Notes: generated from the sequence alone by a model not told the origin. Positions 2,705 through 28,382 are shown, numbered from the stretch's first letter. The stretch: 38,479 nt of DNA from an uncultured Candidatus Saccharibacteria bacterium (GCA_937996675.1 CALKUN010000033.1:1-38479); one strand, 5' to 3'. A program made the numbers and translations.

Positions 2705-5572
2705 ATGTCCACAAAAACGTACATATATAAACTAAGATATAAGTATCAATTTTGGTACAGAAGTTTTTTATGGTGCGCCTTACTTATACTCGCATGGCTT
2801 ATTTGGGGTTTCATACTTTCATTGCCTGTAATTAATGACATCTTTCCGGGCAGTATCAAAGTATTAGATAAAGGCAACACTCTCGGTTATTTGTCTGCTG
2901 TTCTTGCAATCCAAATACCTTTGTTTATTTTGTTTTTAGAAAAGATGGCAAACTCTGGGTACATCTACAGAAAACTACTTCCTCGGGTAGTAAGCTTTCG
3001 CGAAATCATAACCTTGTTACTTGTTGGCAGTACGTTGATCTTAGTATCGCCTCGTGAGTCTTTTTTGTACTTTCCTGTTCTCCTATTGTTTTGGTTAAAC
3101 ATAATAGCAATATATCGCGCCCTAACAACTGTTTTTCAACCAGATCTTTTTGATACACAAATTAACGATTTTCTAAAGCAGTCCGTGAACAAATCATTTG
3201 ATAAAATGCTTGAACACAGAAAGCAACACAACGAATTCTACAAACAACTCGAAGAACTAGAAACAGTAAAAAGATCATTCCTGAAAGCTCGGCCAGACGA
3301 TGATTTAATTAACCTAGAAATTCGTTCAGAAAAATCAGGTTTTATAAACAATATAGATCTCGCAACTATAGTTCGTATTAGAGATAAAGAATTCAACATT
3401 ATTGGTGAAACAAAGGATACTTCGCAGCAAAACAGAAAAAGTTTGGCCATAGTGGTCAATCTTAATGTGTCTCCCACAAATTCAATCAAAAGGGATCGTA
3501 CGCTTATGACAATCTCTATCCCCAAAGATTACTCTAATACTGCAAAACTACGTAAACCGCTTGTTAAATGCTTCGAGATCTTACCGCAGAGCGATATTGA
3601 TGTGCGCTGGCTTGAAGAATTACTGGGTGAGTTTGATCAGCAATTAAATAAAGCAATATTATCAAGTGACACGATACTCATTAATCAAACTTTCACTCAG
3701 TTACAAGTCGTATTAGATAGCGTCGATGACTTTATTAAATCCAAACAGGAAGATGATTATAAACTTGGTCAGGCTTTTGAAGAAATTAGTCGCTTTGCGG
3801 GCGATGAATTAAGCACTGGTCTAGAGAAGATGTTTGAAATTTTAAGTGATCTTACTGCAAAATCAGTAAGGTACGACCAGCCGGATATCAACAGAGAAAT
3901 TATTCGATTTATATATGGCAACTCGCTAAATTGTATACATTCAAAAAATATCACTTCAATAGCTCGGTATGATAGGTTACTGATTAATGCAATCTCTTTA
4001 TTTGTATATTCAAATGCCTGGAATAAAAATCTCAGTACTACACAACGCGACCTAAGAGAATCTTTGCTTAGCAGACTTAAGGAGCATACTGACATTCTTG
4101 TCTATGAACTCAAAGAGCTAAAAGAAGACATTACAAAGTCTGATGACGGTACGCTAGAGCTTTGGTTTGAAAGACGATTAAGTGATATTAGAAGTTTAAC
4201 CTTAGCTTCGTTTTCTAATAAGCTTGATGTACCGTTTATGAAATTCGTAGAAATACTTGAAAGAGTCGAGCGTGATCGCCACTACGACCGGCTTGAACTC
4301 GATACCTACTCACTAATTAAATGCAATATTCTTATTATTGCCGCCTATATTCACAATAAAGGTGAACTTAATGGTGAATTCGGCAAACTAATAGTAAATA
4401 TTATTAGCCGATGGTCTGAACACGAACTAACTCGAACTTTCTTAGAATGTACAGACAATGATTATGCTGATAAATGGCACGTAAACACTCGAGACCTACT
4501 TGCAGATGGTGAGATGCACTCCGTGCCAAGCTACGACCTTGTATTAAAGTCGCTCTGGGTTGAAATAATGCTCGGTAAAACTATTCATCAAAACACCGAT
4601 ATTTATGGAGAGGAAAAGTTATTTGAGCAAACCTTATTCTTCTCCAATGCAACTTCATCCAACGAGAACAATCCATTACTAAATATTGTTGCTGAAAAGG
4701 ACCCTGAAAATACAACCAAACTAAAAGACTTAATAGAAAAGTTAATTGAAATACGCCACAACTGGGAGAATACGAAACTCATTGACGAAGATATAGATGA
4801 TGAGAAGGTAGTAAAACTTCGAGAAAATGTTAATAAAGCATATATTGAAGCATCTTTGGCTGAAAAACTTTTTGGGAAAGAGCTAATTAAATCAGATGAA
4901 TCAAGAAAAGAAAAAGGATTTATGCAATCAGGCATTAATCAAGTCTTCGATAAAGAAGCGTTCATTAAAGATTGGCATATAGGATACGGCAATGAATTCA
5001 TGGGTGAACAGCTAGGCTCTCAAATAGCCACAAACCAGGATAGGAATATTCTGAGTAACCTTGCCAGTAAGCCGGTTACCAGAAAAGATATAGCGAAATT
5101 ATTAACCAAGCTATCTCTAATGGACGGCAGAAAATGGTTAGTGGTAGCAGTAGGGATGGGCATCTGGAGTATTGAGCACAGGTATAAAAACTTCGTAACC
5201 ATGGCCGATGGAGGCAATGAACTCTACTTTAAAAGCATTGATCAAATTTTGCCAGTTCAGACAATCTACATGGATGGCCTGCACGAAGGACTATATTTCA
5301 TTGACGCAGGTAAAATTGGCACTTTGACTGTTAAGTCTGATAACTATGATCCACCTGTTAAGGTGGAGGTAACGGCTTACTCAAAAAGTGACTATTTAAT
5401 GGATGGCCTCATAAGCACATCTCCAAAATGGCTGACTGATAAAGGGGATGAAGCAGCACAAAGAGCGTACTTAGGGACAAAGGCTCGATTATTAGTAGAA
5501 AGGGTTTTCAAACATACCGCCCCTAAGAAGACTGTGGTGTACTTCCTGAAGTCAGATGATGACATAATTTAG
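2705..5572 (+). CDS. large membrane-anchored hypothetical protein (955 aa)
   Basis: A single long ORF in the most AT-rich stretch. The first ~150 aa contain about four hydrophobic helices and are followed by ~800 aa of predicted soluble, helix-rich sequence. No catalytic motif was recognised. Confidence 0.75.
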   Translation: MSTKTYIYKLRYKYQFWYRSFLWCALLILAWLIWGFILSLPVINDIFPGSIKVLDKGNTLGYLSAVLAIQIPLFILFLEKMANSGYIYRKLLPRVVSFREIITLLLVGSTLILVSPRESFLYFPVLLLFWLNIIAIYRALTTVFQPDLFDTQINDFLKQSVNKSFDKMLEHRKQHNEFYKQLEELETVKRSFLKARPDDDLINLEIRSEKSGFINNIDLATIVRIRDKEFNIIGETKDTSQQNRKSLAIVVNLNVSPTNSIKRDRTLMTISIPKDYSNTAKLRKPLVKCFEILPQSDIDVRWLEELLGEFDQQLNKAILSSDTILINQTFTQLQVVLDSVDDFIKSKQEDDYKLGQAFEEISRFAGDELSTGLEKMFEILSDLTAKSVRYDQPDINREIIRFIYGNSLNCIHSKNITSIARYDRLLINAISLFVYSNAWNKNLSTTQRDLRESLLSRLKEHTDILVYELKELKEDITKSDDGTLELWFERRLSDIRSLTLASFSNKLDVPFMKFVEILERVERDRHYDRLELDTYSLIKCNILIIAAYIHNKGELNGEFGKLIVNIISRWSEHELTRTFLECTDNDYADKWHVNTRDLLADGEMHSVPSYDLVLKSLWVEIMLGKTIHQNTDIYGEEKLFEQTLFFSNATSSNENNPLLNIVAEKDPENTTKLKDLIEKLIEIRHNWENTKLIDEDIDDEKVVKLRENVNKAYIEASLAEKLFGKELIKSDESRKEKGFMQSGINQVFDKEAFIKDWHIGYGNEFMGEQLGSQIATNQDRNILSNLASKPVTRKDIAKLLTKLSLMDGRKWLVVAVGMGIWSIEHRYKNFVTMADGGNELYFKSIDQILPVQTIYMDGLHEGLYFIDAGKIGTLTVKSDNYDPPVKVEVTAYSKSDYLMDGLISTSPKWLTDKGDEAAQRAYLGTKARLLVERVFKHTAPKKTVVYFLKSDDDII

Positions 5573-7925: not shown

Positions 7926-8144
7926 ATGGACATATTCGAAAATCAGGAGCCAGAAGAAGTAGTCTCGGATTTTTGCATTCCAAACGAGAAGAAGATTGAG
8001 CTGTTACGATCAATTCTTGAGACTGAATCAGAATCTTCTGTGACATTCAGGGACGCAGAAGAAGTTGCACGCCGACTTGTTTCGTTCTATGAGTCTCTTG
8101 CTGGAGATAGAAAAATAATTCCTGGGCTGCAAGATGAAAGCTAA
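7926..8144 (+). CDS. small acidic hypothetical protein, overlaps the recombinase start (possible directionality or accessory factor)
   Basis: A GGAGGG RBS lies upstream. It overlaps the recombinase gene by 11 nt. Confidence 0.5.
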   Translation: MDIFENQEPEEVVSDFCIPNEKKIELLRSILETESESSVTFRDAEEVARRLVSFYESLAGDRKIIPGLQDES

Positions 8145-9633
8145 CGATAGTAAGGCTGTAATTCTTGCAAGAGTATCGTCAAAAGGACAGGAAGATGAAG
8201 GTTATTCACTAGACTCACAAATCAAATTACTTAAAAACTACGCTGAGAGTAAAGAACTCTGGGTAGCAGAAACATTTAAGATTACTGAAACAGCCTCCAA
8301 GTCATCACAGAGAAAAATTTTTAAGTTAGCAATGAAATATATTGCCGACCATGATATCAAGCACCTCATTATTGAGAAGGTGGATCGACATGTAAGAAAT
8401 TTGCATGATGCGGTAGAAACTCACGATTGGCTTGTTGCAGACGAGCATCGCCACGTCCACTTCGTGAAAGATAGTCTAATCATGCACAAAAACTCGCGAT
8501 CTCAAGAATGGCTAAACTGGGGCATACGCGTTGTAATGGCGAAGAACTATATTGATAACTTGCGCGAAGAAGCTATGAAGGGTTGGGCCGAGAAACTTGC
8601 CCAAGGATGGCTTCCAGCACCACCTCCGCCCGGATATCATACAGTCGTAAAAGATGGAAAACGAATCCATGAACCAAATCCGAAAACGTACCGAACCATG
8701 CAGAAAGCTTTTAAGCATTACCTGAGTCCGAGCGGAAGTATTGATTCAGTTGCCGAGCTAATGACTAAGTCGGGAATAGTAACACGCGGCGGACGTCCGT
8801 ATGCAAAAAGCGCAGTTCATAGACAGTTAAGTAATCCATTCTATATAGGTATAAACTTTTTTGATGGCAAGAGTTACCCAGGCAAGCAAACACCACTCAT
8901 TACTAAACGTATGTTTGATAAGGTTCAGGAAAAACTCCATGGCAAACGCAACCCTAAACAAAGACTACATAATCCTTTGTTTAAAAACATGATTGTTTGC
9001 GGTCACTGCAATAAGGTTGTTACTTGGCAAAAGCAGAAAGGCAAATACTACGGAGCGTGCCAGCGAGATCTACCTGAATGTAAACAAGAGAAATATTTGC
9101 GCGAGTCAGTCATACAAGAACAAGTGATAGACATGCTTGACGACCTGATAAGTCCATCTCAAATGGTAATTGCTTGGCTGACAGACCTTCTGAAGTCAGA
9201 TTTTAAATTGCAGTTAAGTGACACAGAGCAAGCTAAAGCTAATATCGAACATCGCATAGCTAAGATTAAGCGCATGGATGAGATGCTTTACGACGACAAG
9301 TTGAATGGCGATATATCGACCGACCGTTATCGTGAGAAACACGAGGCGTTTATGAGTGAAATTAAAGAGCTCAGTGAGCAGAAAGGAGGCATGAGTCAAG
9401 ACTACGAGGAGAGGTATATGGAAGGTATTACATTAATAGAGCTTACACAGTCAGCAAAACAGCAGTTTATTGACGATGAAGTCGAGGTCGACGAAAAACG
9501 AACTATTTTAACCGAACTTTTCGAAAAAATGGTACTTAAAGACGGATTTGTATCTGTTAAATACACTAAGCTAGCACAAGCAATAGCACGTAAAAGTGCT
9601 CAATCAAGGGAGATTTTAGCATATGGCAAATAA
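8134..9633 (+). CDS. large serine recombinase (integrase type)
   Basis: The N-terminal resolvase catalytic motif is AVILARVSSKGQ...GYSLDSQ. A recombinase domain follows, then a Cys-rich zinc-ribbon segment (CGHCNK...GACQ...C) and a C-terminal coiled-coil-like region. Confidence 0.9.
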   Translation: MKANDSKAVILARVSSKGQEDEGYSLDSQIKLLKNYAESKELWVAETFKITETASKSSQRKIFKLAMKYIADHDIKHLIIEKVDRHVRNLHDAVETHDWLVADEHRHVHFVKDSLIMHKNSRSQEWLNWGIRVVMAKNYIDNLREEAMKGWAEKLAQGWLPAPPPPGYHTVVKDGKRIHEPNPKTYRTMQKAFKHYLSPSGSIDSVAELMTKSGIVTRGGRPYAKSAVHRQLSNPFYIGINFFDGKSYPGKQTPLITKRMFDKVQEKLHGKRNPKQRLHNPLFKNMIVCGHCNKVVTWQKQKGKYYGACQRDLPECKQEKYLRESVIQEQVIDMLDDLISPSQMVIAWLTDLLKSDFKLQLSDTEQAKANIEHRIAKIKRMDEMLYDDKLNGDISTDRYREKHEAFMSEIKELSEQKGGMSQDYEERYMEGITLIELTQSAKQQFIDDEVEVDEKRTILTELFEKMVLKDGFVSVKYTKLAQAIARKSAQSREILAYGK

Positions 9634-14257: not shown

Positions 14258-14452
14258 GTGAACGGGTTGATCACATTAGATGACACAGCGCAATACGCAA
14301 CTAAAGAAGTAGCCATACTCGTCGTAGCGGCTGCTTTTGTCATTTCACTAGCTGGAGTTGCTGCTGCTGCCTACATCATCTGTGGCTGGAAGGGTGCTAA
14401 AAACGTCGTAATGGATTTTGTGCACGGTAAAGCAACGTTTGTCTGCCGGTAA
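14258..14452 (+). CDS. 64-aa hydrophobic peptide (candidate precursor, immunity or substrate peptide)
   Basis: A GTG start lies 7 nt after AGGGAGGG. The peptide has an acidic 17-aa N-terminus, a 27-aa Ala/Val/Ile core (VAILVVAAAFVISLAGVAAAAYIICGW) and a basic 20-aa tail with a second Cys. Its stop lies 12 nt before the next start. Confidence 0.55.
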   Translation: MNGLITLDDTAQYATKEVAILVVAAAFVISLAGVAAAAYIICGWKGAKNVVMDFVHGKATFVCR

Positions 14453-14464
14453 AGGAGTAGCAGG

Positions 14465-15298
14465 GTGCTCATACTCAGTAATCATGACACTATCGAGCTA
14501 GGCTACGGCTACACTATTGAATCAACGCACCTGGTTGATTCAATAGTGGCCGCACGGCATAAGCTCGATAGTCGCATCGTGAATATACTGCGGAGCCTCA
14601 AGCTGCAACCGATGGCCTACCGCGATCTTGTCGGTAAGCTTGAAGAACAAGAGATAGATAGAGCACAAGGGGAAGGCCTTATTCTTACGCTGAATTCAAT
14701 AGGTGCTTTGAAGATACGGCGCAGAATAGGAGCAGTCAAAGAGCGAGCCATGCTTACTACTCGTGCCCTTCTTCTTCATCGAAAGATAACTGCGGTCCAG
14801 CAGAGAGACCGGACCAACTTTTACTCGCTCGTCCTGGCACTCAGTAGGGCGACAGGATTCCTGCTCTTGCTCTGGTGTTTTGCATGCAGTCTGGTCGTCG
14901 CAATCGGGACTATTTCAATGTCATACTTTATTGCACTCAGTGTCGGTGCTTACGTCACGCTTTTGATAAGTCTTATTTGCCACGAATACGCGCACGTGAT
15001 GATATTAGGGGAAGCCAAGAAAACATCAGCCATCGTTCGTAATGGCTGGAGAATTGGCATACTTCACGAGCAGCAATCCGCTCAAAGGGAGCTATTTTCT
15101 GCAGTATTGGGACCACTGGCCGGCGCGTTAACTGCGCTCGGTCTATGCACTCTGCTGCATACCATCACTCATGAGCCCGTATGGCTGGCTATTGGTTGGG
15201 TTTTTGTTGGCTGCCACTTCCTGAGTCTCCTGCCGAGCTTCGGTGATGGCTGGACAATCGTACGAGCATTTGAGAAAGGAGCCGCACGTGATATTTGA
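14465..15298 (+). CDS. membrane metalloprotease, M50 (site-2 protease)-like, with an N-terminal PqqD/RRE-like cytoplasmic domain
   Basis: A GTG start lies 7 nt after AAAGGAG. HEYAH sits inside a hydrophobic helix (LICHEYAHVMILG), and a downstream LLPSFGDGW resembles the M50 NxxPxxxLDG motif. The N-terminal ~110 aa (HKLDSRIVNILRSLKLQPMAYRDLVGKLEEQEIDRAQGEGLILTLNSIGAL) fits a PqqD-like winged-helix pattern by eye. Confidence 0.7.
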   Translation: MLILSNHDTIELGYGYTIESTHLVDSIVAARHKLDSRIVNILRSLKLQPMAYRDLVGKLEEQEIDRAQGEGLILTLNSIGALKIRRRIGAVKERAMLTTRALLLHRKITAVQQRDRTNFYSLVLALSRATGFLLLLWCFACSLVVAIGTISMSYFIALSVGAYVTLLISLICHEYAHVMILGEAKKTSAIVRNGWRIGILHEQQSAQRELFSAVLGPLAGALTALGLCTLLHTITHEPVWLAIGWVFVGCHFLSLLPSFGDGWTIVRAFEKGAARDI

Positions 15299-16013
15299 AG
15301 TAGAGCAGCTCAAGTATCATCATTCGTCAACCTTTCAGCTTGAGGTTGAGCGAATGACAGTATCTGCAGGAGAACTCATATGTATAGTTGGCCCAAATGG
15401 AAGTGGCAAAACAACCTTCCTCAATAATCTAAGTGGCATAACGCTCCCGCAGCATGGACGCGTCAGTCTGATGGGAATTCCAATGAGCCCTAACCTAGCG
15501 CTCATCAAGCGTAATCTAGGATACATCCCTGATGATGACAACTGGTTTGTGTCCGAGCTAACGGCTCGTGAATACTTAGTACTCCTTGAAAAAGTCTACG
15601 CCAAGGCTGGATGCTACGTGAACATGCATCGACGCGCAAAACAATTAGCTCAGGCTCTAAAATTCATACTTTGGGACCAGCCACTCATGACGCTCAGTCA
15701 CGGCAATAAGCGAAAGGTGCAAATCATAGCCGGGCTCATGCATCAGCCAAAAGGTATTATTATTGACGAGCTCAGAAATGGCCTTGATCCACTCGCAGTT
15801 ATTGCCGCTGAACACATTATTCTTGAAGAAGTAGAACGCGGAGCGGCGGTTATTACAGCCTCCCACGATCTATGGTGGGCTGAACGATTGGCCCAAAAAA
15901 TCATTCTCCTCAACGAGGGTAAGATTGCCCATGAGCTCATTCCCGACCAGCTACGCAAGAAAGGGAAGTCGGTTGAATCAATATTTATCGAGATGGTGGA
16001 GCAGACAGCATGA
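15288..16013 (+). CDS. ABC transporter ATP-binding protein
   Basis: Walker A is GPNGSGKTT, the signature is LSHGNKRKV and Walker B is IIIDE. The GTG at 15288 lies 7 nt after AAAGGAG, so it is preferred over the ORF-track start at 15243. Confidence 0.9.
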   Translation: MIFEVEQLKYHHSSTFQLEVERMTVSAGELICIVGPNGSGKTTFLNNLSGITLPQHGRVSLMGIPMSPNLALIKRNLGYIPDDDNWFVSELTAREYLVLLEKVYAKAGCYVNMHRRAKQLAQALKFILWDQPLMTLSHGNKRKVQIIAGLMHQPKGIIIDELRNGLDPLAVIAAEHIILEEVERGAAVITASHDLWWAERLAQKIILLNEGKIAHELIPDQLRKKGKSVESIFIEMVEQTA

Positions 16014-17377
16014 CGTCAACTTTATTCTCGGCTGTTATCGTCCATACCTTTGGTCGAAATTCGCTACGCCCGCAGAAAACAGCCTGGCGGCGTCTACTAT
16101 TTGCCATAGGGATCGCTACTGTGCTTGATGTCATCGTCACCGGTAGCCTCAGTACATTGCAATTGCCGTCGGACCTCTTTCAAAGCTGGGTAGCAATCAT
16201 GCTCATTCTCACGATTCAAATTGTAGTTGGGCTTATTATGTTGATTGTCCGAGCTAGTGGCTATGGCCTACACGATGATCAGATAAATGACATACTTAGT
16301 GTGATGCCAGTGTCAGAGTTGAGCCGTTGGGTCATCGCCCTTGTGCCCGGGCTAGTGGTTGTAGGGCTGCTGTACATCGTTACGATTGGACCGCTCATTA
16401 TCATAGCGAGCACTCTTCACTTGCCGTTATATCTCTGTATCTTGAGTATTATCATAGGCACACTCTCAGGCATCGGGCTGGGTACATACCAACCTCACAC
16501 TTCCATAGCTCTAAACTTCTTGCTTATGGCCCTCCTCGTTGCCGCTGAGCTGCAGCTGCTTGAGCGCATCATGACAACTTACCAGATTTACCAAAACCCA
16601 TTTCTTGTTGGTTTCGCAACACTCTTAGTACTCATAGTCATTCCGTTTTATTGGCTGGCTCGTAGCGTGCAGACATGGTCACACGCTCGACAGCGCAAGT
16701 CGACAGCAGTCTATTCTTTTAGTATATTCCCGATCGGTGTAAATACATGGCTGGCGCACAAGGTGACACGGCACCCCAAGATAATCCGTTCTGCGGTTGT
16801 GCTGACCGGAATCAGCAACCTGCTCACATACATGTGGCTTCAATCGAGTAATGGTGGCGATCCAGATATGTCCATAATCATTATTGGATTATCATTTATA
16901 GCTTCACTCGCTACATCGGATATTCGCGGACTCACTCGATCGGAAGCCGCACCTGAAATAATTATGGTCCGAGGTAGTCTGTTCTTTGTGATACAACAGA
17001 TCTGCACAGGATTAATACTCAGCACCATTGTCACAGCACCGATCTGGCTTAGTCTGGTCATATCCCACAGCCATCATCCGACCATGCTTCTAGCAATCCT
17101 AGGTCAATTAGCGCTCGGCAGCACAACCGCACTCCTGACGAGCACACTCTTCGTACCGAGTCAGCAAGATGTTTCAGCTGAATTCTTCAGCGCCACAATT
17201 AGTGCCTGTCTTATTATTGCTTTAGAAAAAATCTCGACATCACTCAAGCTTGCCACAACACTGCAAGCTAAATCCATCATTTGGATTATTACCGCAAATA
17301 TCATTGCGATATGCATCTTCAGTGTCGAGCGGCGACGTAATAACTATTATTGGAAGGGGATCAATACCTATGCATAA
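16010..17377 (+). CDS. polytopic membrane protein, putative ABC permease partner (455 aa)
   Basis: It has an ATGA overlap with the ATPase gene and about 10-12 hydrophobic segments. No family was recognised. Confidence 0.7.
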   Translation: MTSTLFSAVIVHTFGRNSLRPQKTAWRRLLFAIGIATVLDVIVTGSLSTLQLPSDLFQSWVAIMLILTIQIVVGLIMLIVRASGYGLHDDQINDILSVMPVSELSRWVIALVPGLVVVGLLYIVTIGPLIIIASTLHLPLYLCILSIIIGTLSGIGLGTYQPHTSIALNFLLMALLVAAELQLLERIMTTYQIYQNPFLVGFATLLVLIVIPFYWLARSVQTWSHARQRKSTAVYSFSIFPIGVNTWLAHKVTRHPKIIRSAVVLTGISNLLTYMWLQSSNGGDPDMSIIIIGLSFIASLATSDIRGLTRSEAAPEIIMVRGSLFFVIQQICTGLILSTIVTAPIWLSLVISHSHHPTMLLAILGQLALGSTTALLTSTLFVPSQQDVSAEFFSATISACLIIALEKISTSLKLATTLQAKSIIWIITANIIAICIFSVERRRNNYYWKGINTYA

Positions 17378-17687
17378 CAATTCAACTGCGCAAAAGAGCA
17401 TTGGACAATGGCTCGCTGCAGTATTTTCTGGTGGAGCCGCGTTGTTTTTCATCATATTTCTTGCACAAGCTTCGAGCCTATCGAGTACGACCGAAACAAC
17501 AAAACGCATAGTCGGACTTGGGCCGCTTCATTTTCTGCAGATTACGAAAAGCATCGATGGAGCTGGGACAAGTGCAAGCTTTGAATTCTTGCCAGGAATA
17601 ATCGGGTACATTATTGTCTTAGCGCTCCTCACCGGTGCTGGAGTTTGGTACAGCCTACGTCGCACCCAGACTGTTTCTGCAGAATAA
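17370..17687 (+). CDS. small two-helix membrane protein (105 aa)
   Basis: The ATG at 17370 has GGAAGGGGA upstream and overlaps the permease stop by 8 nt. The longer ORF-track form (17250) lies inside the permease gene. Confidence 0.5.
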   Translation: MHNNSTAQKSIGQWLAAVFSGGAALFFIIFLAQASSLSSTTETTKRIVGLGPLHFLQITKSIDGAGTSASFEFLPGIIGYIIVLALLTGAGVWYSLRRTQTVSAE

Positions 17688-21448: not shown

Positions 21449-22423
21449 ATGAAGTTCTTGCGATTCTTTACTCAGCTCCTCCTGGCTGCCTCACTCACTA
21501 CCCTCATTGTGAGCTATTCACTCCTCCAGCTCGTCGCTACTGGCACCGGTATGAGTGATACGCTCAATAAAAGCGGGATCTACGATATGGTCGCAGCTGA
21601 AGCCCGGAAGGGACTTGGTTCGTCACCAAAAGTACCAGCTAAGTACCAGGAACTCTTCACGACCAGCCTCAACAAAGCTATTGATACCGCGCAGATCGAA
21701 GCCATGCTCAAGCCTGCTATCGTCGATATTGCGGCCTGGCTCAATCAGCCCGACGACACGCCACCGCCAGATGTCGTAATTGTGATCAAGCCTGCAAAAG
21801 ATGCGCTCATCAAAGAACTCAGCGACGGGGGACTGAGTGGCTTAGAGCTCACTGCGCTGCAGATGCAACTCAGCCAGCAAGTGCCTGATCAGCTGCGTCT
21901 ATCCAGCCTAGGCGACCTACTCGGTGAGTCAGACAGTGGTGATGCTTCGGGAGCGAATTCAAACACAGCCAAGCCGCAAACCACCACGAGTCAAAGCGAT
22001 GCCGTAGTCGAAGGCCTCAAGAACCTGAAATCCGGCGTGTCAGCCCTCCGGCTCGCATTCATGATTAGTATCGGCGCAACCGCGTTATTCAGCCTTCTCG
22101 TTATTCTCATGAGCCGCAAGTTGGGTCGATCGGCCTTCAAGGCGGTATCGATGAGCTACCTGTCCGAAGGCGGCCTCTGGCTAGCTCTTGGACTTATTGT
22201 ACCGGCTGTATTCCACCCAGCCACAGATGCTGTCACAGAGTCAACTATCGCCATGCACTTGGCTCCTGTCTTTATAGCCCGCGTACTCAGTGCCTCACTT
22301 CTCCCAGCCGGTATCATCGTACTCATTGGCGCGATTGGGCTCGCCATTACGCTCCTGCGTCGCCCGAAGACCCCCGCAGCTACAGCACCAGTCCAGCCTC
22401 TCGCTGCACCACCTCGTCGCTAG
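21449..22423 (+). CDS. hypothetical membrane protein
   Basis: The ATG at 21449 gives a signal-anchor-like N-terminus (MKFLRFFTQLLLAASLTTLIV). It has C-terminal hydrophobic helices and a Pro/Ala tail. Confidence 0.6.
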   Translation: MKFLRFFTQLLLAASLTTLIVSYSLLQLVATGTGMSDTLNKSGIYDMVAAEARKGLGSSPKVPAKYQELFTTSLNKAIDTAQIEAMLKPAIVDIAAWLNQPDDTPPPDVVIVIKPAKDALIKELSDGGLSGLELTALQMQLSQQVPDQLRLSSLGDLLGESDSGDASGANSNTAKPQTTTSQSDAVVEGLKNLKSGVSALRLAFMISIGATALFSLLVILMSRKLGRSAFKAVSMSYLSEGGLWLALGLIVPAVFHPATDAVTESTIAMHLAPVFIARVLSASLLPAGIIVLIGAIGLAITLLRRPKTPAATAPVQPLAAPPRR

Positions 22424-24486
22424 ACGACGAGCTCAGTACGTGTCTGCCACCGAGGTTTGAAGAGCTCGTAATGAAGCATAGAAGCGATCAGGACACCCAT
22501 AATAAATACATTCGTAAACGGTGCCAGTATCTGAGCGGGCAAGTTCTGACGCGTTTCGAGGGCTACGATCCAACGAGTAATAAGGTGAGCTACGATCACG
22601 ATGACCGCGAGTAGCGCGTGAATGTTCTGGCCGCTTAAGATATCCCAGATCAAGATTAGCGACGGGAGAGTAAAAACAAACAAGCCTCCCAACGTCAGGA
22701 ACCAAACAATCGGGAAGTGATAGTTCAGGGCCGGATAGTAACGCTGTATATCGTCTTCGAGGATAGCTTGGATACCCTGGTGATTTTGTGAGGTCGCAAG
22801 GTCACTGGCTCGGTAGAGTTGAGCCTTGAGCCCGAGGTTACGAGCTCGACGGAAGAGCTCCTGATCTTCCAGAGGACTGGCTCGAACCTCTGAGAAACCG
22901 CCAATCTCACGAATAGGATGCACCGCAAAGGCCGTAATGCCACCTTGAGCAGATGAGCGTTCGGGGGCATGAGCCTGCAAGTATGCAGCCGGGTAGGCCG
23001 ATAGCAGGAGGTATTGATTGTGACTCAAGATCGTCTTCTGAGCCAGTGATTTGTTTTGGTCTGACGGCAGAAGCGAGAGGAAGTGGACGTGCTTTTCTTC
23101 CATGAGTGAAGCAATCTGCGCCAGGGCGTTTGGCAGCAATACAGTGTCAGCCGAGACGAGTACAGCATATTCGCCAGTGGCTTTTTTGAGGAGCTGATCG
23201 CTAGCCCAAGCATTCACACTCCAACCAGCCTCGATAGGCGCAATACTCACTCGCTTGAAGCGCTTATCAGAGTACGAGTCGGCGATACTGACAGTATTGT
23301 CGTCCGAGCCCAAGTCAGTCAGGAGAATCTCAAAGTCTGGATAGTCCTGGCCAAGCGAAGCCAAGATGGTGCTAGCGATATTGTCAGCTTGGTTGTAGCT
23401 ATGGATCAAGATACTCATACGAGGCCACTCCTCGAGCCGCTTGGTGGTCGGGCGGCGAAAAGCCGTCAGATTGTATCCAATGAGTGCAAATTGCAAGATG
23501 CTAAAGCACAGGCAGAAGAGGAGGATATTGTCGATGCGGGATGGGCCGAGCTGGAGAGGGTCAAACACATACAGGAGGAGCTGGGTGAGCCAGAAACCGA
23601 CGAAGCCGTTCAGCCACAGAAAGTTGGTCCAAGCCCGCCGGAACAGCTTGGACTGAGCATCGGAGGTGTACTTGAGGAAGAAGGCTGCGTTGAGCACATA
23701 GGGCAGTAAGAGAAATGCGGCCGCCAAAGACACCGGCCAGGCTATCAGTGCCGTGAGGATACAGCTCAACACATACAGCACAAATGAGAAGCGGAGCGTT
23801 TTTCGGGCACCCCACATCGTAGCAATAGATCGGATCTTACCAGCTCGGTCAGGCTTGATGTCCTGAATCGCCCCCAGCGCATGACTAGCCATGCCCCATG
23901 CGAAGAAAGCCACTGCAACCATCCAGGCGACCTCACCCTTGGGGCTCACGAGCCAGCCAAATACTGCCGGCCCAACAAAATGGCAGGCTGAATTGATCGA
24001 GTCTAGGATCGGAATCTCCTTAAAGCGCAAACCTTTAACAGAATACGACAGCGCAAGGGCGATTAATGCACCAAGGGTCCAGCGCCCCACTACTGACGTG
24101 AGCGGCCATAAGGCACCCAAGCTAATGATGAGGATGAGGATGATCGCTATCCAGAACATCCGCCGACGATCTGGAGCCACCAAGCTACCCTCGAGGCCAC
24201 CCTTGCGAGGGTTTTTGATATCCGACTCATAGTCGAAAATGTCATTTACTCCATACATGAGCAGATTGTAGGGAAGAAGGAAGAATATTGTACTCAGTAT
24301 AAAGAAAGCATTGATTTGGCCGCCACTCGTTAGGAAAGCAGCCATAAATGGAATGGCAGTATTCGCCCAGCTGACTGGACGACTAGCGGCGAGTATTTCG
24401 CGTACGACGTCGAGGGCGCTGTGACTTGGTGTGTCTACGTGGCGGTGGCGTTTTGGCGGGTGTGGCGATGTGTTGAGTTGATTCAT
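22420..24486 (-). CDS. fusion protein: UbiA-family prenyltransferase (lycopene-elongase-like) + family-2 glycosyltransferase with C-terminal TM helices
   Basis: The N-terminal half has the UbiA Asp-rich motif NDIFDYESDIKNPRK within multiple TM helices. The C-terminal half has GT-A motifs (MSILIHSYNQADNI...DYPDFEILLTDLGSDDNT, VSADT, LEDQELFRRA). The start is taken as MNQLN at 24486, though the frame is open to 24552. Confidence 0.8.
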   Translation of the reverse strand: MNQLNTSPHPPKRHRHVDTPSHSALDVVREILAASRPVSWANTAIPFMAAFLTSGGQINAFFILSTIFFLLPYNLLMYGVNDIFDYESDIKNPRKGGLEGSLVAPDRRRMFWIAIILILIISLGALWPLTSVVGRWTLGALIALALSYSVKGLRFKEIPILDSINSACHFVGPAVFGWLVSPKGEVAWMVAVAFFAWGMASHALGAIQDIKPDRAGKIRSIATMWGARKTLRFSFVLYVLSCILTALIAWPVSLAAAFLLLPYVLNAAFFLKYTSDAQSKLFRRAWTNFLWLNGFVGFWLTQLLLYVFDPLQLGPSRIDNILLFCLCFSILQFALIGYNLTAFRRPTTKRLEEWPRMSILIHSYNQADNIASTILASLGQDYPDFEILLTDLGSDDNTVSIADSYSDKRFKRVSIAPIEAGWSVNAWASDQLLKKATGEYAVLVSADTVLLPNALAQIASLMEEKHVHFLSLLPSDQNKSLAQKTILSHNQYLLLSAYPAAYLQAHAPERSSAQGGITAFAVHPIREIGGFSEVRASPLEDQELFRRARNLGLKAQLYRASDLATSQNHQGIQAILEDDIQRYYPALNYHFPIVWFLTLGGLFVFTLPSLILIWDILSGQNIHALLAVIVIVAHLITRWIVALETRQNLPAQILAPFTNVFIMGVLIASMLHYELFKPRWQTRTELVV

Positions 24487-24772
24487 AGTGTTGTAAGAAT
24501 GCCGTGTATAGCCCGGGAGCAAGGAAGATTGCGACAAGCAAGTAGCCAACATCTTCGATTGGCCAGGTCAGAATCTTCGCACCTAGTATGTACGCGGAGT
24601 TATATTCTACTATAGGTAGCGATGTTAAGTACGTATTAAATATCACCATCATCAAATAGAGGATAATGAGTGAGACGACGAGTGCCGTAGGCTCGCTCTC
24701 TAGCTTGAGACGCTTGGCAGCAATCCAGGCGATAGCAACCCAAGCAAGATTCAAGATGAGATACCGAATCAC
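24383..24772 (-). CDS. lycopene cyclase domain protein, second subunit (CrtYd/CrtYf-like)
   Basis: The conserved motif WPIEDVGYLL sits in a small 3-TM protein. A GTG start forms a GTGA overlap with the upstream subunit's stop. The basic tail overlaps the next gene out of frame. Confidence 0.7.
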   Translation of the reverse strand: MIRYLILNLAWVAIAWIAAKRLKLESEPTALVVSLIILYLMMVIFNTYLTSLPIVEYNSAYILGAKILTWPIEDVGYLLVAIFLAPGLYTAFLQHYESTQHIATPAKTPPPRRHTKSQRPRRRTRNTRR

Positions 24773-25149
24773 TTTGAGACTCCCTTCAAGGGTACACTCG
24801 GCGCCAGCTTGTAGACAATCAGCGTCACGTAGACCAGCAAGGTCAGGAAGAGCACCTCTTCTATAGGTAGATTGGGCGTAATCAGATTCAGCCCCAGCGT
24901 GTATTGAGGATTTGTACGGAAGATACCGAGAATAATCCCACAGATATCCCACAACAAAAACAGTGTGAGCATGACGACAAGCGTTGAGATAAATGCCAGA
25001 AGCCGTGGTGATGTCTTTGCTGGGCGCTTTTTCGAATCAAATATCACCAATCCATAGCGCCAATCGGCTATACCGAGTCCAAACAAGGACACCACAAGTA
25101 TAGCCAGGTACATCCAGTGCGCGTGAAATAAGAAGATAATACTCTGCAT
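24769..25149 (-). CDS. lycopene cyclase domain protein, first subunit (CrtYc/CrtYe-like)
   Basis: The conserved motif LPIEEVLFL sits in a small 3-TM protein of 126 aa. Confidence 0.75.
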   Translation of the reverse strand: MQSIIFLFHAHWMYLAILVVSLFGLGIADWRYGLVIFDSKKRPAKTSPRLLAFISTLVVMLTLFLLWDICGIILGIFRTNPQYTLGLNLITPNLPIEEVLFLTLLVYVTLIVYKLAPSVPLKGVSK

Positions 25150-25254
25150 GTATTAATGATACCAGTTCAAGCCGCGACATGATTGGTCTATTGCAAATCT
25201 TCAATATCAGTGTTTTAATAATTCACACACTTTGTACCGACAGATGGAGTAGCC

Positions 25255-25752
25255 ATGCCAACCACCAGCAAGAAGGCAGGGAAGAGCAAGCGACAAACGA
25301 AGCTTGCACCCTCGAAGCGGAGCGCCAGCAAGAGGAGGGCGAAGAAGCATTCGCACAAGAAGAAGCCGGCTCCCGCCAAGCCGATCACCATCGAGGCGAT
25401 CAGGGCCTTGCGGGTGGCCTTCCCTGAGGTCATGAGCCACGCCAACGGCATCAGCCTCACCAATGCGCGGCTTGCCAAGTCCCTGAGAGCCATTTGCAGG
25501 TCAGCCCAAGACTCAGCAGAGCACGAGATCACGAAGGCCCTGACCAAGCTTGGGCGTCAGCTCAACGGATCTCAGGGAGACGGGGCCTATGAGCCGGTAC
25601 TGACAACCCGGCAGATCAGCAAGATCATCAAAAAGCCCAAGAGCGTGGCAGCCATCCGCGAACGCAATCCCGGCTCGCTGGGCGACGCCGCCATCGCGGA
25701 ACTCAAGACGGTGATCGATCTCGTCCTCGGTCGCACCACACAGTCCAGCTGA
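25255..25752 (+). CDS. hypothetical protein with Lys/Arg/Ala/Pro-rich N-terminal tail
   Basis: A GGAG RBS lies upstream. About 50 aa of basic low-complexity sequence (KKAGKSKRQTK...KKHSHKKKPAPAKP) precede a helical domain. Confidence 0.55.
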   Translation: MPTTSKKAGKSKRQTKLAPSKRSASKRRAKKHSHKKKPAPAKPITIEAIRALRVAFPEVMSHANGISLTNARLAKSLRAICRSAQDSAEHEITKALTKLGRQLNGSQGDGAYEPVLTTRQISKIIKKPKSVAAIRERNPGSLGDAAIAELKTVIDLVLGRTTQSS

Positions 25753-25762
25753 GGACCCTTCC

Positions 25763-25794
25763 GACTCAGAATTTCCGTATGGGAATTCTGAGTC
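25763..25794. terminator. 14-bp stem hairpin after the basic-protein gene
   Basis: GACTCAGAATTTCC-GTAT-GGGAATTCTGAGTC has one G-U pair and no clear T-tract. Confidence 0.4.
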
Positions 25795-25822
25795 AAGTCA
25801 TTTTACCTATATACTAATAAGC

Positions 25823-27316
25823 ATGAAACAAACTGCTATTGTTATCGGCGCCGGAATCGGCGGGCTCTGTACTGCCGCACGTCTCGCCCATGACGGATAC
25901 AAGGTCACTATAGTCGAAAAGGAGCGTCTCGTGGGTGGGCGGGCCCATCGCCTCCAACAGGATGGTTACACATTTGACACAGGTCCGACGATCCTCATGA
26001 TGACCGACGTGCTGTATGACACTTTTAGTTACTGCGGCAAGGACCTCGATGATTACATCAGTTTGCTGCAGCTGGAGCCAAACTATAAGGTCTGGTATCC
26101 GGATGGTGAAACCCTCGAAGTCAGCTCGAATTTGCCCCGCTTTGCGGCCGAGTTGGCTCGCTTTGATCCCAAGGCGCCAGAGCAGTTTTACCGTTTCTTT
26201 GCCGACGTCGCCGAGATGTATCGTATCTCTCGGCACAAGTTCATCGATAAAAACTTTGATAAGCTCACAGACTTCATCGACCTCAAGGCTGGTATCCAAC
26301 TGTTGCGTCGACGCGGACTTACCAAGCTATATAGCTTTGTCTCGCGCTACTTTGATGATCCGCGTCTACGACAACTCTTCTCGTTTCAATCAATGTACCT
26401 TGGTGTCACACCCTACGAAGCACCCGCTATATATAGTGTGGTGAGCTATATGGAGACTGGTCTCGGTATCTGGTATCCCAAAGGTGGTATGCACGCCTTG
26501 CCACAAGCGCTCGCGCAACTCTGTCAGGACCTTGGCGTAGACATCCGACTCAATACGCCCGCGCAAGGGATTACCACCAAGGACAAGCGCGTCACCGGGA
26601 TCGATCTCGAATCAGGCGACCATCTCAAGGCCGATATCGTGATCTCCAATGCAGATCTAACCTACACGCATCGTCAACTCATTCCGAGTAGTGGCAAGGA
26701 TTACTCCGATAAGCAACTCAATAAGCTGAAGCAAGCCAGCAGCGCGCTCCTATTCTACTGGGGCGTAGACGACGATCTCGATGGAATCCTACACCACAAC
26801 GTATTTTTCTCTCAAGACTTCAAGCACAACCTTGAGGAGATCTTTCATGACAAGAAACTACCCGAAGACCCGGCCTTCTATCTCTATGTACCCACCAAGA
26901 CAGATCCAACCTTAGCACCAAAAGGAAAGCACGTACTCTACGTACTCGTACCAGTACCAAATCTCGAGGGCGACGTCGAATGGAGTGCGGCTACGAAGCA
27001 AATCAAGGCTAAAGTACTGGCCCGTCTCAAGACTGACCTGGGCGTCAATATTGGGAGGCACATCCAGACCGAAGCTGTCTTCACTCCAGAAGATTTTGAG
27101 ACGAAGTTTAACCTCACAAATGGATCAGCTTTTGGCCTGAGCCACACATTCTTCCAATCCGGATTCTTCCGTCCGCATAATGTCAGCCGAGCCGTTAAAG
27201 GACTCTATTTTGTGGGTGCGTCTACCTATCCTGGTAGTGGTGTACCTATGGTGACCTTATCTGGTAAGCTGGTCGTAGAACGGATTCATCATGACAGACA
27301 CACCACTTCCAGCTGA
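25823..27316 (+). CDS. crtI: phytoene desaturase
   Basis: The N-terminal FAD fold is IVIGAGIGGLCTAARLAHDGYKVTIVEK. The C-terminal signature is YFVGASTYPGSGVPMV. Confidence 0.9.
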   Translation: MKQTAIVIGAGIGGLCTAARLAHDGYKVTIVEKERLVGGRAHRLQQDGYTFDTGPTILMMTDVLYDTFSYCGKDLDDYISLLQLEPNYKVWYPDGETLEVSSNLPRFAAELARFDPKAPEQFYRFFADVAEMYRISRHKFIDKNFDKLTDFIDLKAGIQLLRRRGLTKLYSFVSRYFDDPRLRQLFSFQSMYLGVTPYEAPAIYSVVSYMETGLGIWYPKGGMHALPQALAQLCQDLGVDIRLNTPAQGITTKDKRVTGIDLESGDHLKADIVISNADLTYTHRQLIPSSGKDYSDKQLNKLKQASSALLFYWGVDDDLDGILHHNVFFSQDFKHNLEEIFHDKKLPEDPAFYLYVPTKTDPTLAPKGKHVLYVLVPVPNLEGDVEWSAATKQIKAKVLARLKTDLGVNIGRHIQTEAVFTPEDFETKFNLTNGSAFGLSHTFFQSGFFRPHNVSRAVKGLYFVGASTYPGSGVPMVTLSGKLVVERIHHDRHTTSS

Positions 27317-28382
27317 ACTCCTTAAAACCGCCATAGGCAAGATCAAAGTCGATGTAGACCGCGAACTTGCCCTGTTTTTTGATCACAAAATCGCCGAGGC
27401 CGGTCGAGTCGACCCACAATACCGCAAGCTGATGCTCGAGACCAAGAAGCTCATACTGCGAGGCGGCAAACGTCTACGGCCATTTATGGTTTGGCTCGGC
27501 TGGCGACTAGCGGGCGGCACAAAATATGATGACTTTCTCAAACTTGCTGTAGCCTGGGAGATTTATCACAATAGCGCACTCATTCTCGACGACATCATGG
27601 ACCAAGACCATACCCGGCACAACGGCCTGAATATCTATGGTGTATATGAGAAATCACTCAAGCGTAGCCACGCACCCGAGGTAGCCACAACCCACGCCCG
27701 AAATGCCGCACTGATGTCAGGCATTTCTACGCTTATGCTTGCTGTTGAGAGCCTTCGCACGATACGGCTCGAGCCCGATCATGCCAAGGCGCTCGAAAAT
27801 GAGTTTCTCAAGATGCACTTTCGCTTGGTCGGAGGCCAGTTTGTCGAAGACCAAGCTGCACTCCAAAAAGTCATCAAACCAAGTCAGATTCGCAAGATCT
27901 ATCTCAATAAGTCTGGCTATTTCTCAATGGTGTCGCCCCTCCAGTCCGGCGCACGCCTAGCTGGCACAAATGAGGCTATTCTCGACGTCCTCAAGCAATA
28001 TGGTGAACACGCCGGCGTGGCCTACCAGATCATCGACGACGTCATTGGTACATTTGGATCGAGTCGTGAAATAGGGAAGTCCAACACGACCGACGTAGAA
28101 GAAAACAAGCACACGCTCCTTATGCATTACGGACTTGAATTTGCTGACGACGCTCAAAAAGCTATCCTCAAAAAATACCTGGGCCAGCCCAATCTCACCG
28201 GCGCAGAGCTGAAGCAGGTCCGCAAAGTCCTCACCGACAACGGCGCCAAAGCGAAAACAATGTTTGTGGCCCAGGCTGAAGCCGAAGCTGCTAAAAAAGC
28301 CTTCAAGAAGCTCGCCTTGGCTGGCGATGTCCCCATACTCTTTGACGCGCTGACCGACTATCTCGTCAAACGATCGGTCTAA
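27291..28382 (+). CDS. crtE: polyprenyl (geranylgeranyl) diphosphate synthase
   Basis: The first Asp-rich motif is LILDDIMDQD..R. The second is YQIIDDVIG followed by GKSNTTDVEENKHT. It overlaps crtI by 26 nt. Confidence 0.8.
   Translation: MTDTPLPAELLKTAIGKIKVDVDRELALFFDHKIAEAGRVDPQYRKLMLETKKLILRGGKRLRPFMVWLGWRLAGGTKYDDFLKLAVAWEIYHNSALILDDIMDQDHTRHNGLNIYGVYEKSLKRSHAPEVATTHARNAALMSGISTLMLAVESLRTIRLEPDHAKALENEFLKMHFRLVGGQFVEDQAALQKVIKPSQIRKIYLNKSGYFSMVSPLQSGARLAGTNEAILDVLKQYGEHAGVAYQIIDDVIGTFGSSREIGKSNTTDVEENKHTLLMHYGLEFADDAQKAILKKYLGQPNLTGAELKQVRKVLTDNGAKAKTMFVAQAEAEAAKKAFKKLALAGDVPILFDALTDYLVKRSV

Follow-up and report, generated by a model that had tools for sequence, protein, structure and literature searches.

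The stretch of DNA considered here, referred to as the window, comprises 38,479 nucleotides from an uncultured Candidatus Saccharibacteria bacterium (GCA_937996675.1 CALKUN010000033.1:1-38479), and our analysis centers on a compact membrane protein encoded on its plus strand. The C-terminal half of this protein is clearly a relative of the M50 (site-2 protease [S2P]) family, predicted to be an intramembrane zinc metalloprotease, while its N-terminal part is predicted to fold like the recognition element (RRE) of RiPPs, peptides that are made on the ribosome and modified post-translationally. The gene belongs to a five-gene cassette, in which it lies directly downstream of a gene for a short peptide. 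The features of the protease gene are the following:

14465..15298, plus strand: protein of 277 amino acids, in which a predicted RRE-like domain is fused to an M50 (site-2 protease) core
14465..14722, plus strand: predicted N-terminal RRE-like domain, residues ~1 to 86 (AlphaFold model, Foldseek, conservation)
14726..14812, plus strand: linker with helix 88-103 and strand 112-116, in which R114 is at least 90% conserved
14819..15295, plus strand: M50/S2P membrane core, residues 119 to 277 (model, profile match, Foldseek, hydropathy)
14981..14995, plus strand: HEYAH, an HExxH motif predicted to bind zinc and to act in catalysis, located close to where the second membrane helix ends
15227..15253, plus strand: LLPSFGDGW, the second M50 motif, with D261 as predicted third zinc ligand

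The open reading frame (ORF) starts with GTG, and AAGGAG, a good Shine-Dalgarno sequence, occurs about 8 nucleotides upstream of it. The coordinates given for this ORF in the initial annotation are exact, and all of the sequence strings quoted there were found, namely RIVNILRSLKLQPMAYRDLVGKLEE and GEGLILTLNSIGAL in the N-terminal part, HEYAH at residues 173 to 177, and LLPSFGDGW at residues 255 to 263.

When 1.84 billion representative proteins were searched with a HMMER profile, 414 were retrieved at E ≤ 1e-3, 171 of which at E ≤ 1e-30, nearly all full length (~280 amino acids). Of 153 family proteins retrieved, 152 contain HExxH and 126 contain LPx(2-4)DG; furthermore, an alignment of 141 sequences shows no variation at D25, E174, H177, P257, D261, and G262 and a conservation of at least 90% at H173, with an identity within the family of about 25%. 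Because this conservation is family wide (the sets of 414, 153, and 141 proteins), the presence of HEYAH and LLPSFGDGW is above chance. Word-indexed searches retrieved five relatives with the single protease sequence and one extra match, an ordinary M50 protein, with the 141-sequence profile, and a scan of a genome collection with a five-sequence protease alignment gave one match, a Saccharibacteria metagenome-assembled genome. The window protease itself returned nothing from Pfam and NCBIfam at E ≤ 1 and nothing from the PDB sequences at E ≤ 10. In their source annotation, the sampled relatives, as well as most of the peptides discussed below, are either "hypothetical protein" or nameless, and a description of this Saccharibacteria protease family was not found in our literature search.

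Membrane core and N-terminal domain of the protease

The AlphaFold model of the protease, built on five sequences, has a predicted local distance difference test score (pLDDT) of 88.8 and a predicted template modeling score (pTM) of 0.77. The four to five transmembrane helices expected from the initial annotation find their counterpart in four long helices after residue 119 of the model and in four segments of a hydropathy scan. In particular, the core consists of helices 119-147, 152-181 (with HEYAH), and 206-235 and of a last helix broken into 239-253 and 260-276, with D261 at the break, together with a beta-hairpin at residues 189 to 200. HExxH lies within the predicted membrane helix 152-181 of a protease family, which is the opposite of a location outside the membrane in a non-protease family.

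The 141-sequence profile matches the S2P of M. jannaschii (mjS2P; 3b4r_A) with an E value of 3.3e-8 over positions 138 to 279. In this alignment, H173, E174, and H177 fall on HELGH and D261 on the Asp of LIPAFPMDGG, and SLLPSFGDG, compared to NLIPAFPMDG of mjS2P, features Ser in place of the usual Asn. The same chain was the top match when the model was searched with Foldseek against 350,542 PDB chains (probability of 1.00, E value of 8.8e-3, 141 columns), and SpoIVFB (8vjl_A) was also matched, with E values that are modest. These results bear out the M50-type assignment made in the initial annotation. The comparison with PF02163 proposed there gave a mixed outcome, since this family was matched weakly by 40 of the 141 members (best E value of 1.8e-4) and the C-terminal consensus scored 26.0 bits, below the gathering threshold of 27.2, whereas the window protein had no match at E ≤ 1; DUF3267 was touched by 10 members. 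Despite this shortfall, homology to S2P follows from the profile match to mjS2P.

The protease shares with mjS2P and SpoIVFB the position of HExxH and of the Asp of the DG motif on separate membrane helices, as well as a beta-hairpin after the HExxH helix. The accessory domains of core site-2 proteases are CBS (SpoIVFB) or PDZ (RseP), not RRE, and SpoIVFB- and RseP-type enzymes cleave sigma or anti-sigma factors instead of a small peptide dedicated to them. Different from these enzymes, the protein of the window combines the core with an RRE-like domain and has a small peptide as its neighbor.

The RRE-like domain is modeled with a pLDDT of about 90 and comprises strands 9-12, 16-19, 22-25, and 30-33, helices 36-47, 52-61, and 66-78, and a further strand at 82-85; D25 is invariant, and conservation reaches at least 90% at D8, L12, H32, L76, and R86. 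In RRE/PqqD domains, the strands come first and are followed by three helices, whereas the classical winged helix begins with a helix. About 12 of the 30 best Foldseek matches are RRE-bearing RiPP enzymes (MadB, TbtB, MibB, NisB, McbB, TbiB1, CteB, and PbtF), with modest E values of 0.045 to ~3 and alignments of 76 to 113 columns at root mean square deviations of 2.4 to 6.9 Å. The target-normalized template modeling score reached 0.63 for TbiB1 and 0.57 for the isolated RRE of PbtF. Only one generic winged helix (2yu3, probability of 0.41) was among the same 30 matches. The domain thus resembles the RREs of these RiPP maturases in predicted fold and topology, but it differs from them in having four strands instead of three, in being attached to a membrane protease, and in a sequence homology that is undetectable.

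Peptide gene and downstream genes of the cassette

The other members of the cassette are the following:

14258..14452, plus strand: candidate precursor peptide gene, 64 amino acids, GTG start (ORF; homologous ~65-amino-acid ORFs upstream of the protease gene)
15288..16013, plus strand: ATP-binding protein of an ATP-binding cassette (ABC) transporter (PF00005, E value of 8.6e-23; best NCBIfam similarity to DrrA-type ATPases)
16010..17377, plus strand: membrane protein of 455 amino acids with ~10 hydropathy segments (homologues at the same position in 13 related loci)
17370..17687, plus strand: fifth cassette gene, ~105 amino acids, two hydrophobic segments (position and sequence pattern conserved in eight loci; hydropathy)

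The order of the five genes, i.e., the peptide of ~65 amino acids, the RRE-M50 protein, the ABC ATPase, the membrane protein of ~450 amino acids, and the protein of ~105 amino acids with two transmembrane segments, is fixed across loci. In each of the nine related loci, the protease gene is immediately preceded by an ORF of ~65 amino acids, and in the loci fetched by means of the peptide alone, the protease gene adjoins the peptide in 20 of 20 cases where the contig continues. Where a locus reaches far enough, the gene after that of the protease encodes the ABC ATPase.

The peptide of the window consists of an acidic, leader-like N terminus of ~18 amino acids (LITLDD..Y..KE), a hydrophobic segment of ~24 amino acids, and a cationic tail of 22 amino acids. 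The consensus of the leader is (L/M)(I/V)xAD-x4-Y-x2-KE, with D9, Y14, K17, and E18 conserved, while the tail contains an invariant CGW-x-G, D(W/F), KATF, and two invariant cysteines, with the peptides ending in Cys-Arg. Our search retrieved 71 protein clusters of the peptide, almost all of exactly 65 amino acids, and Candidatus Saccharibacteria is the only organism name that they carry.

Two further observations concern the relationship between peptide and protease. First, both ORFs (14258..15298) are in one frame, separated by TAA and four codons, so that read-through would give a natural fusion; since the frames differ in a related locus (L004), the shared frame is probably coincidental. 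Second, the N terminus of the protease (14465..14510, MLILSNHDTIEL) resembles the leader of the peptide (14258..14300, GLITLDDTAQY). The corresponding consensus sequences are GLLLESDvlSLS, in which D8 and L12 are at least 90% conserved, and SLIvAD..vdY, respectively, and MAFFT repeatedly placed the N terminus of the protease upon the peptide leader in alignments. In the model, this leader-like stretch forms an extra strand at the N terminus, giving four strands where canonical RREs have three, and it might represent a pseudo-leader in cis.

Downstream of the protease, the ORF of the ABC ATPase is listed from a GTG at 15243, but its likely start is the GTG at 15288, which gives an overlap of 11 nucleotides with the stop codon of the protease gene. 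The 455-amino-acid protein is the presumed permease partner of this ATPase and belongs to an orphan family; neither single sequences nor a 10-sequence profile had a match in Pfam and PDB, and it may represent an undescribed family of ABC permeases. The start of the fifth gene overlaps the end of the preceding one, and its product, which could be an accessory or immunity protein, features a conserved GP(L/I)xLF..K....G motif between the two hydrophobic segments. Tailoring enzymes were not seen adjoining the cassette among the Pfam-scanned neighbors in the window or in the related loci, and a scan for promoters and terminators gave nothing beyond shuffled expectation.

As for the surroundings, the genes next to the cassette in the window encode an MFS transporter, a PGPGW protein, and an alpha/beta hydrolase. 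In the clade of the window, the cassette comes after the MFS transporter and the PGPGW protein, whereas in another clade (L001, L007, L008, and L009) it is flanked by cell wall genes, which encode YkuD L,D-transpeptidase, S66 LD-carboxypeptidase, Asp/Glu racemase, Mur ligase, and MurL.

Proposed function and competing explanations

We consider it fairly probable that the compact M50 protease, with its cytoplasmic RRE-like domain, is the processing enzyme of the five-gene cassette, and its likeliest function would be to remove the leader of the neighboring peptide, with ABC export coupled to this step. Starting from the ORF and its conserved motifs, the homology of the core to S2P, the predicted RRE-like fold, and the strict gene linkage, we infer leader binding, the cleavage site, export, disulfide formation, and the role of the product as follows. 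The RRE-like domain would bind the acidic N-terminal ~18 residues of the 65-amino-acid peptide, and the hydrophobic segment of the latter would reach the HExxH/Asp active site from the cytoplasmic side. A hairpin serves as the strand-addition element in RseP and SpoIVFB, and the hairpin at residues 189 to 200 of the protease would be the likely element of this kind here. The peptide would be cut at or just within the boundary between the leader and the hydrophobic segment, and the hydrophobic, cationic product of ~45 residues would then be extracted and exported by the ABC ATPase, the ~450-amino-acid permease, and the protein with two transmembrane segments; in addition, this transporter may confer protection on the producer. 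Once outside, the peptide could form a disulfide loop of 22 residues between its two invariant cysteines, and the product could be a membrane-active or signaling peptide of Saccharibacteria.

Several observations weigh against this proposal, and they concern both partners. As regards the protease, the window protein itself is below every curated Pfam and NCBIfam threshold, and the closest orthologue beyond the 90%-identity cluster of the window (P0002, 62% identical, at 2989..3819 of L005) has YEYSH in place of HExxH, and thus lacks the first zinc-binding His; the copy could be inactive, the variant could be tolerated, or the sequence could contain an error. Furthermore, PF05402 was not found in Pfam scans of the window protein, the 141 members, and the family consensus, and the comparison by hhalign of the N-terminal profile with three PqqD sequences (two taken from PDB alignments) returned a probability of 0.2%. 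As for the NCBIfam models of the PqqD type, neither the window protein nor the consensus had a match, and three different models were each matched by 1 of the 141 members (E values of 0.003 to 0.019). The PqqD-like character attributed to the N terminus in the initial annotation is thus visible in the topology of the model and in its RRE-bearing Foldseek neighbors, but the sequence pattern is invisible to sequence tools, and profile comparison with PqqD failed to reproduce it. Since sequence methods detect no similarity to PqqD, the RRE assignment rests on the predicted fold and on the gene context, and it depends on one predicted structure from five sequences.

As regards the peptide, its identity is about 50% over the whole length, i.e., above that of the protease, which is atypical of a bacteriocin that evolves fast and is just as compatible with a membrane component under constraint. 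The hydrophobic segment is flanked by acidic residues on its N-terminal side and by basic residues on its C-terminal side. Under the positive-inside rule, this distribution favors for the peptide an orientation with the N terminus outside and the C terminus inside, whereas the substrates of site-2 proteases are normally oriented with the N terminus inside. An AlphaFold model of the fused peptide-protease sequence (seven rows) had a pLDDT of 56, with the peptide below 40 and unstructured; it was uninformative either way and lent no support to docking of the leader.

The conservation of the peptide also bears on the main competing explanation, in which a small resident membrane protein undergoes regulated intramembrane proteolysis and no secreted product is matured. 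According to this explanation, the 65-amino-acid peptide would serve as a subunit with a structural or regulatory role, e.g., of the ABC transporter, and the RRE-M50 protein would set its level or free its short cytoplasmic end as a signal. The peptide is conserved throughout, hydrophobic segment included, above any enzyme of the cassette. The sampled relatives commonly have the cassette, which in many cases lies amid peptidoglycan genes (YkuD, Mur ligase, racemase, and S66 carboxypeptidase), a housekeeping-like setting; site-2 proteases classically serve such signaling, and the lack of visible tailoring enzymes beside the cassette is in line with it. However, genes for sigma, anti-sigma, or other transcription factors were not found in the cassette, and a freed fragment of 18 residues would be very small for an effector. 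Moreover, the RRE-like fold and the occurrence of ABC exporters with the daptide and epipeptide proteases favor peptide maturation, and we regard proteolysis of a resident protein as rather unlikely.

It would be more difficult to reconcile the data with an N terminus that is an ordinary winged-helix domain for DNA binding or dimerization, in a membrane-tethered regulator or protease that has nothing to do with peptide recognition and to which the peptide is a mere neighbor. The only sequence-level hints for the N-terminal part are indeed of the helix-turn-helix (HTH) or winged-helix type, namely a chain of the AsnC family (4czd_B, E value of 0.062) and matches of the consensus to HTH_26, HTH_7, and wHTH-PRTase_assc (E values of 0.06 to 0.2), and the negative hhalign result with PqqD points in the same direction. 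However, all of the HTH-type matches are nonsignificant, the model has strands ahead of three helices, as RREs do, and the Foldseek neighbors are overwhelmingly RRE bearing, with 2yu3 as the one generic winged helix in the best 30. Since, in addition, the peptide gene stands beside the protease gene in every locus examined, we deem a winged-helix regulator improbable.

Relation to known peptide proteases and significance

The initial annotation had presented the fusion of an RRE with a site-2 protease as unusual. However, the same design is known from daptide clusters, where the site-2 protease DapP/MpaP carries a fused RRE at its N terminus (Ren et al., Nat Commun 2023, PMC10036551). The same study reports 80 RRE-peptidase fusions beside short ORFs that combine a conserved leader motif with an aliphatic core, in clusters from Actinomycetota and Bacillota that include ABC transporters, and proposes removal of the leader by MpaP/DapP (PMC10036551). 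Since this architecture was published in 2023, it will be no surprise to specialists.

The protease of the window resembles DapP/MpaP in its predicted N-terminal RRE followed by an M50/S2P core, in the ABC ATPase gene directly downstream, in the neighboring short (here candidate) precursor peptides with a conserved N-terminal leader motif and then a hydrophobic stretch, in the proposed leader removal, and in the equal distance of the membrane/HExxH region from the N terminus. Likewise, in Microbacterium sp. PF5, an ABC ATPase gene lies directly downstream of a gene with a match to the RRE of DapP. The NCBIfam model most common among the family members is the daptide intramembrane metalloprotease (daptide_HExxH, NF041824), matched by 8 of the 141 (best E value of 4.4e-5) and in a collinear manner (positions 124 to 189 of the protein versus 121 to 186 of the model). 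The hominicin daptide cluster was discarded as a source of a DapP sequence because it uses a serine peptidase.

However, the sequence similarity to DapP is marginal, and the length of 277 amino acids compares to ~530 amino acids in the Microbacterium example and to 379 positions of the model. Moreover, DapB (DUF-RRE), DapC, DapD, and DapM are absent beside the cassette, both in the window and in the related loci, and the named organisms are Candidatus Saccharibacteria, different from the Actinomycetota and Bacillota of the daptide clusters. Daptide precursors feature an invariant C-terminal Thr and an ELExMEAP leader, whereas the peptides considered here have 65 amino acids, two Cys, and a Cys-Arg end. 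It follows that a true daptide cluster, with the protease as the DapP orthologue and the peptide as the daptide precursor, is highly improbable: the domain order of DapP, the adjoining ABC ATPase, and the fact that daptide_HExxH is the NCBIfam family most touched by members speak for it, but the members and consensus inspected scored 9.5 to 14.9 bits against the NF041824 cutoff of 300, with no match for the window protein, and membership is refuted by the missing class-defining enzymes (genes for aminotransferase, alcohol dehydrogenase, methyltransferase, and DapB are not beside the cassette) and by the missing C-terminal Thr. The cassette resembles the protease/transport module of daptide clusters, but it is neither a daptide cluster nor the carrier of a demonstrable DapP orthologue.

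The maturation of epipeptides (EpeP/YydH) and of pearlins likewise involves M50 proteases, and YydH/EpeP has been implicated in the cleavage and export of an antimicrobial peptide. The YydH/LiaK epipeptide protease (NF058609) is the second most common NCBIfam model in the family (5 of the 141 members, E ≥ 0.018), with the consensus at 13 to 14 bits against a cutoff of 225. The likeness to the epipeptide system (LiaK family; yydFGHIJ/epeXEPAB) lies in a small M50 protease that comes with a precursor peptide and an ABC ATPase/permease pair. On the other hand, epipeptide clusters include a radical-SAM epimerase, whereas none is present in the cassette of the window or of the related loci, and to our knowledge no RRE domain has been described for YydH/EpeP.

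A similar logic of S2P cleavage followed by ABC export is found in streptococci and enterococci, where Eep, an RseP-type S2P, cuts a small hydrophobic pheromone peptide in the membrane, which is then exported by the ABC exporter PptAB. Eep and PptAB are general-purpose proteins encoded by unlinked genes, whereas here the genes for the protease, its presumed substrate, and the transporter make up a single dedicated operon and the putative recognition domain is borne by the protease.

While the RRE plus site-2 protease architecture is already known, what is new here is an unannotated family that has a peptide family of its own, lacks tailoring enzymes, and counts Candidatus Saccharibacteria as its only named relatives. 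Candidatus Saccharibacteria are ultra-small epibionts of Actinomycetota. It is possible to hypothesize, as a tentative extension that we would not rate as probable, that the cassette represents a lineage-wide minimal RRE-guided pathway, in which maturation would be limited to intramembrane removal of the leader and disulfide formation and would yield a strongly conserved membrane-active or signaling peptide for the relationship between epibiont and host. If so, it would represent the first example of an RRE-dependent system that lacks tailoring enzymes altogether. Within such a pathway, the module of protease and ABC transporter may have a common origin with the daptide module found in the host phylum, and the leader-like N-terminal strand of the protease might gate the RRE as a pseudo-substrate in cis.

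For the RiPP and bacteriocin field, the proposed processing role would mean that the RRE plus site-2 protease module exists beyond daptides in a stripped-down form, and the use of RREs would widen to the selection of substrates for an intramembrane protease alone. The protein would also offer genome mining and engineering a compact, self-contained leader peptidase. As for the Saccharibacteria, the five genes form a conserved and wholly unannotated unit, in which the families of the peptide, the protease, and the ~450-amino-acid permease are without a Pfam match. The cassette probably makes a secreted or surface peptide, and it is therefore a concrete, testable candidate for host interaction or competition in a group of organisms with a poorly understood biology.

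Elsewhere in the window, the region 22420..28382 contains isoprenoid/carotenoid-like genes, which encode a fusion of UbiA prenyltransferase and GT2 glycosyltransferase, a flavin amine-oxidase (phytoene-desaturase-like), and a polyprenyl synthetase. A large serine recombinase with Resolvase, Recombinase, and Zn-ribbon domains is encoded at 8134..9633, and an ORF of 955 amino acids at 2705..5572 has no Pfam match at E ≤ 1e-5; together, the two may be the remnant of a mobile element upstream of the cassette.

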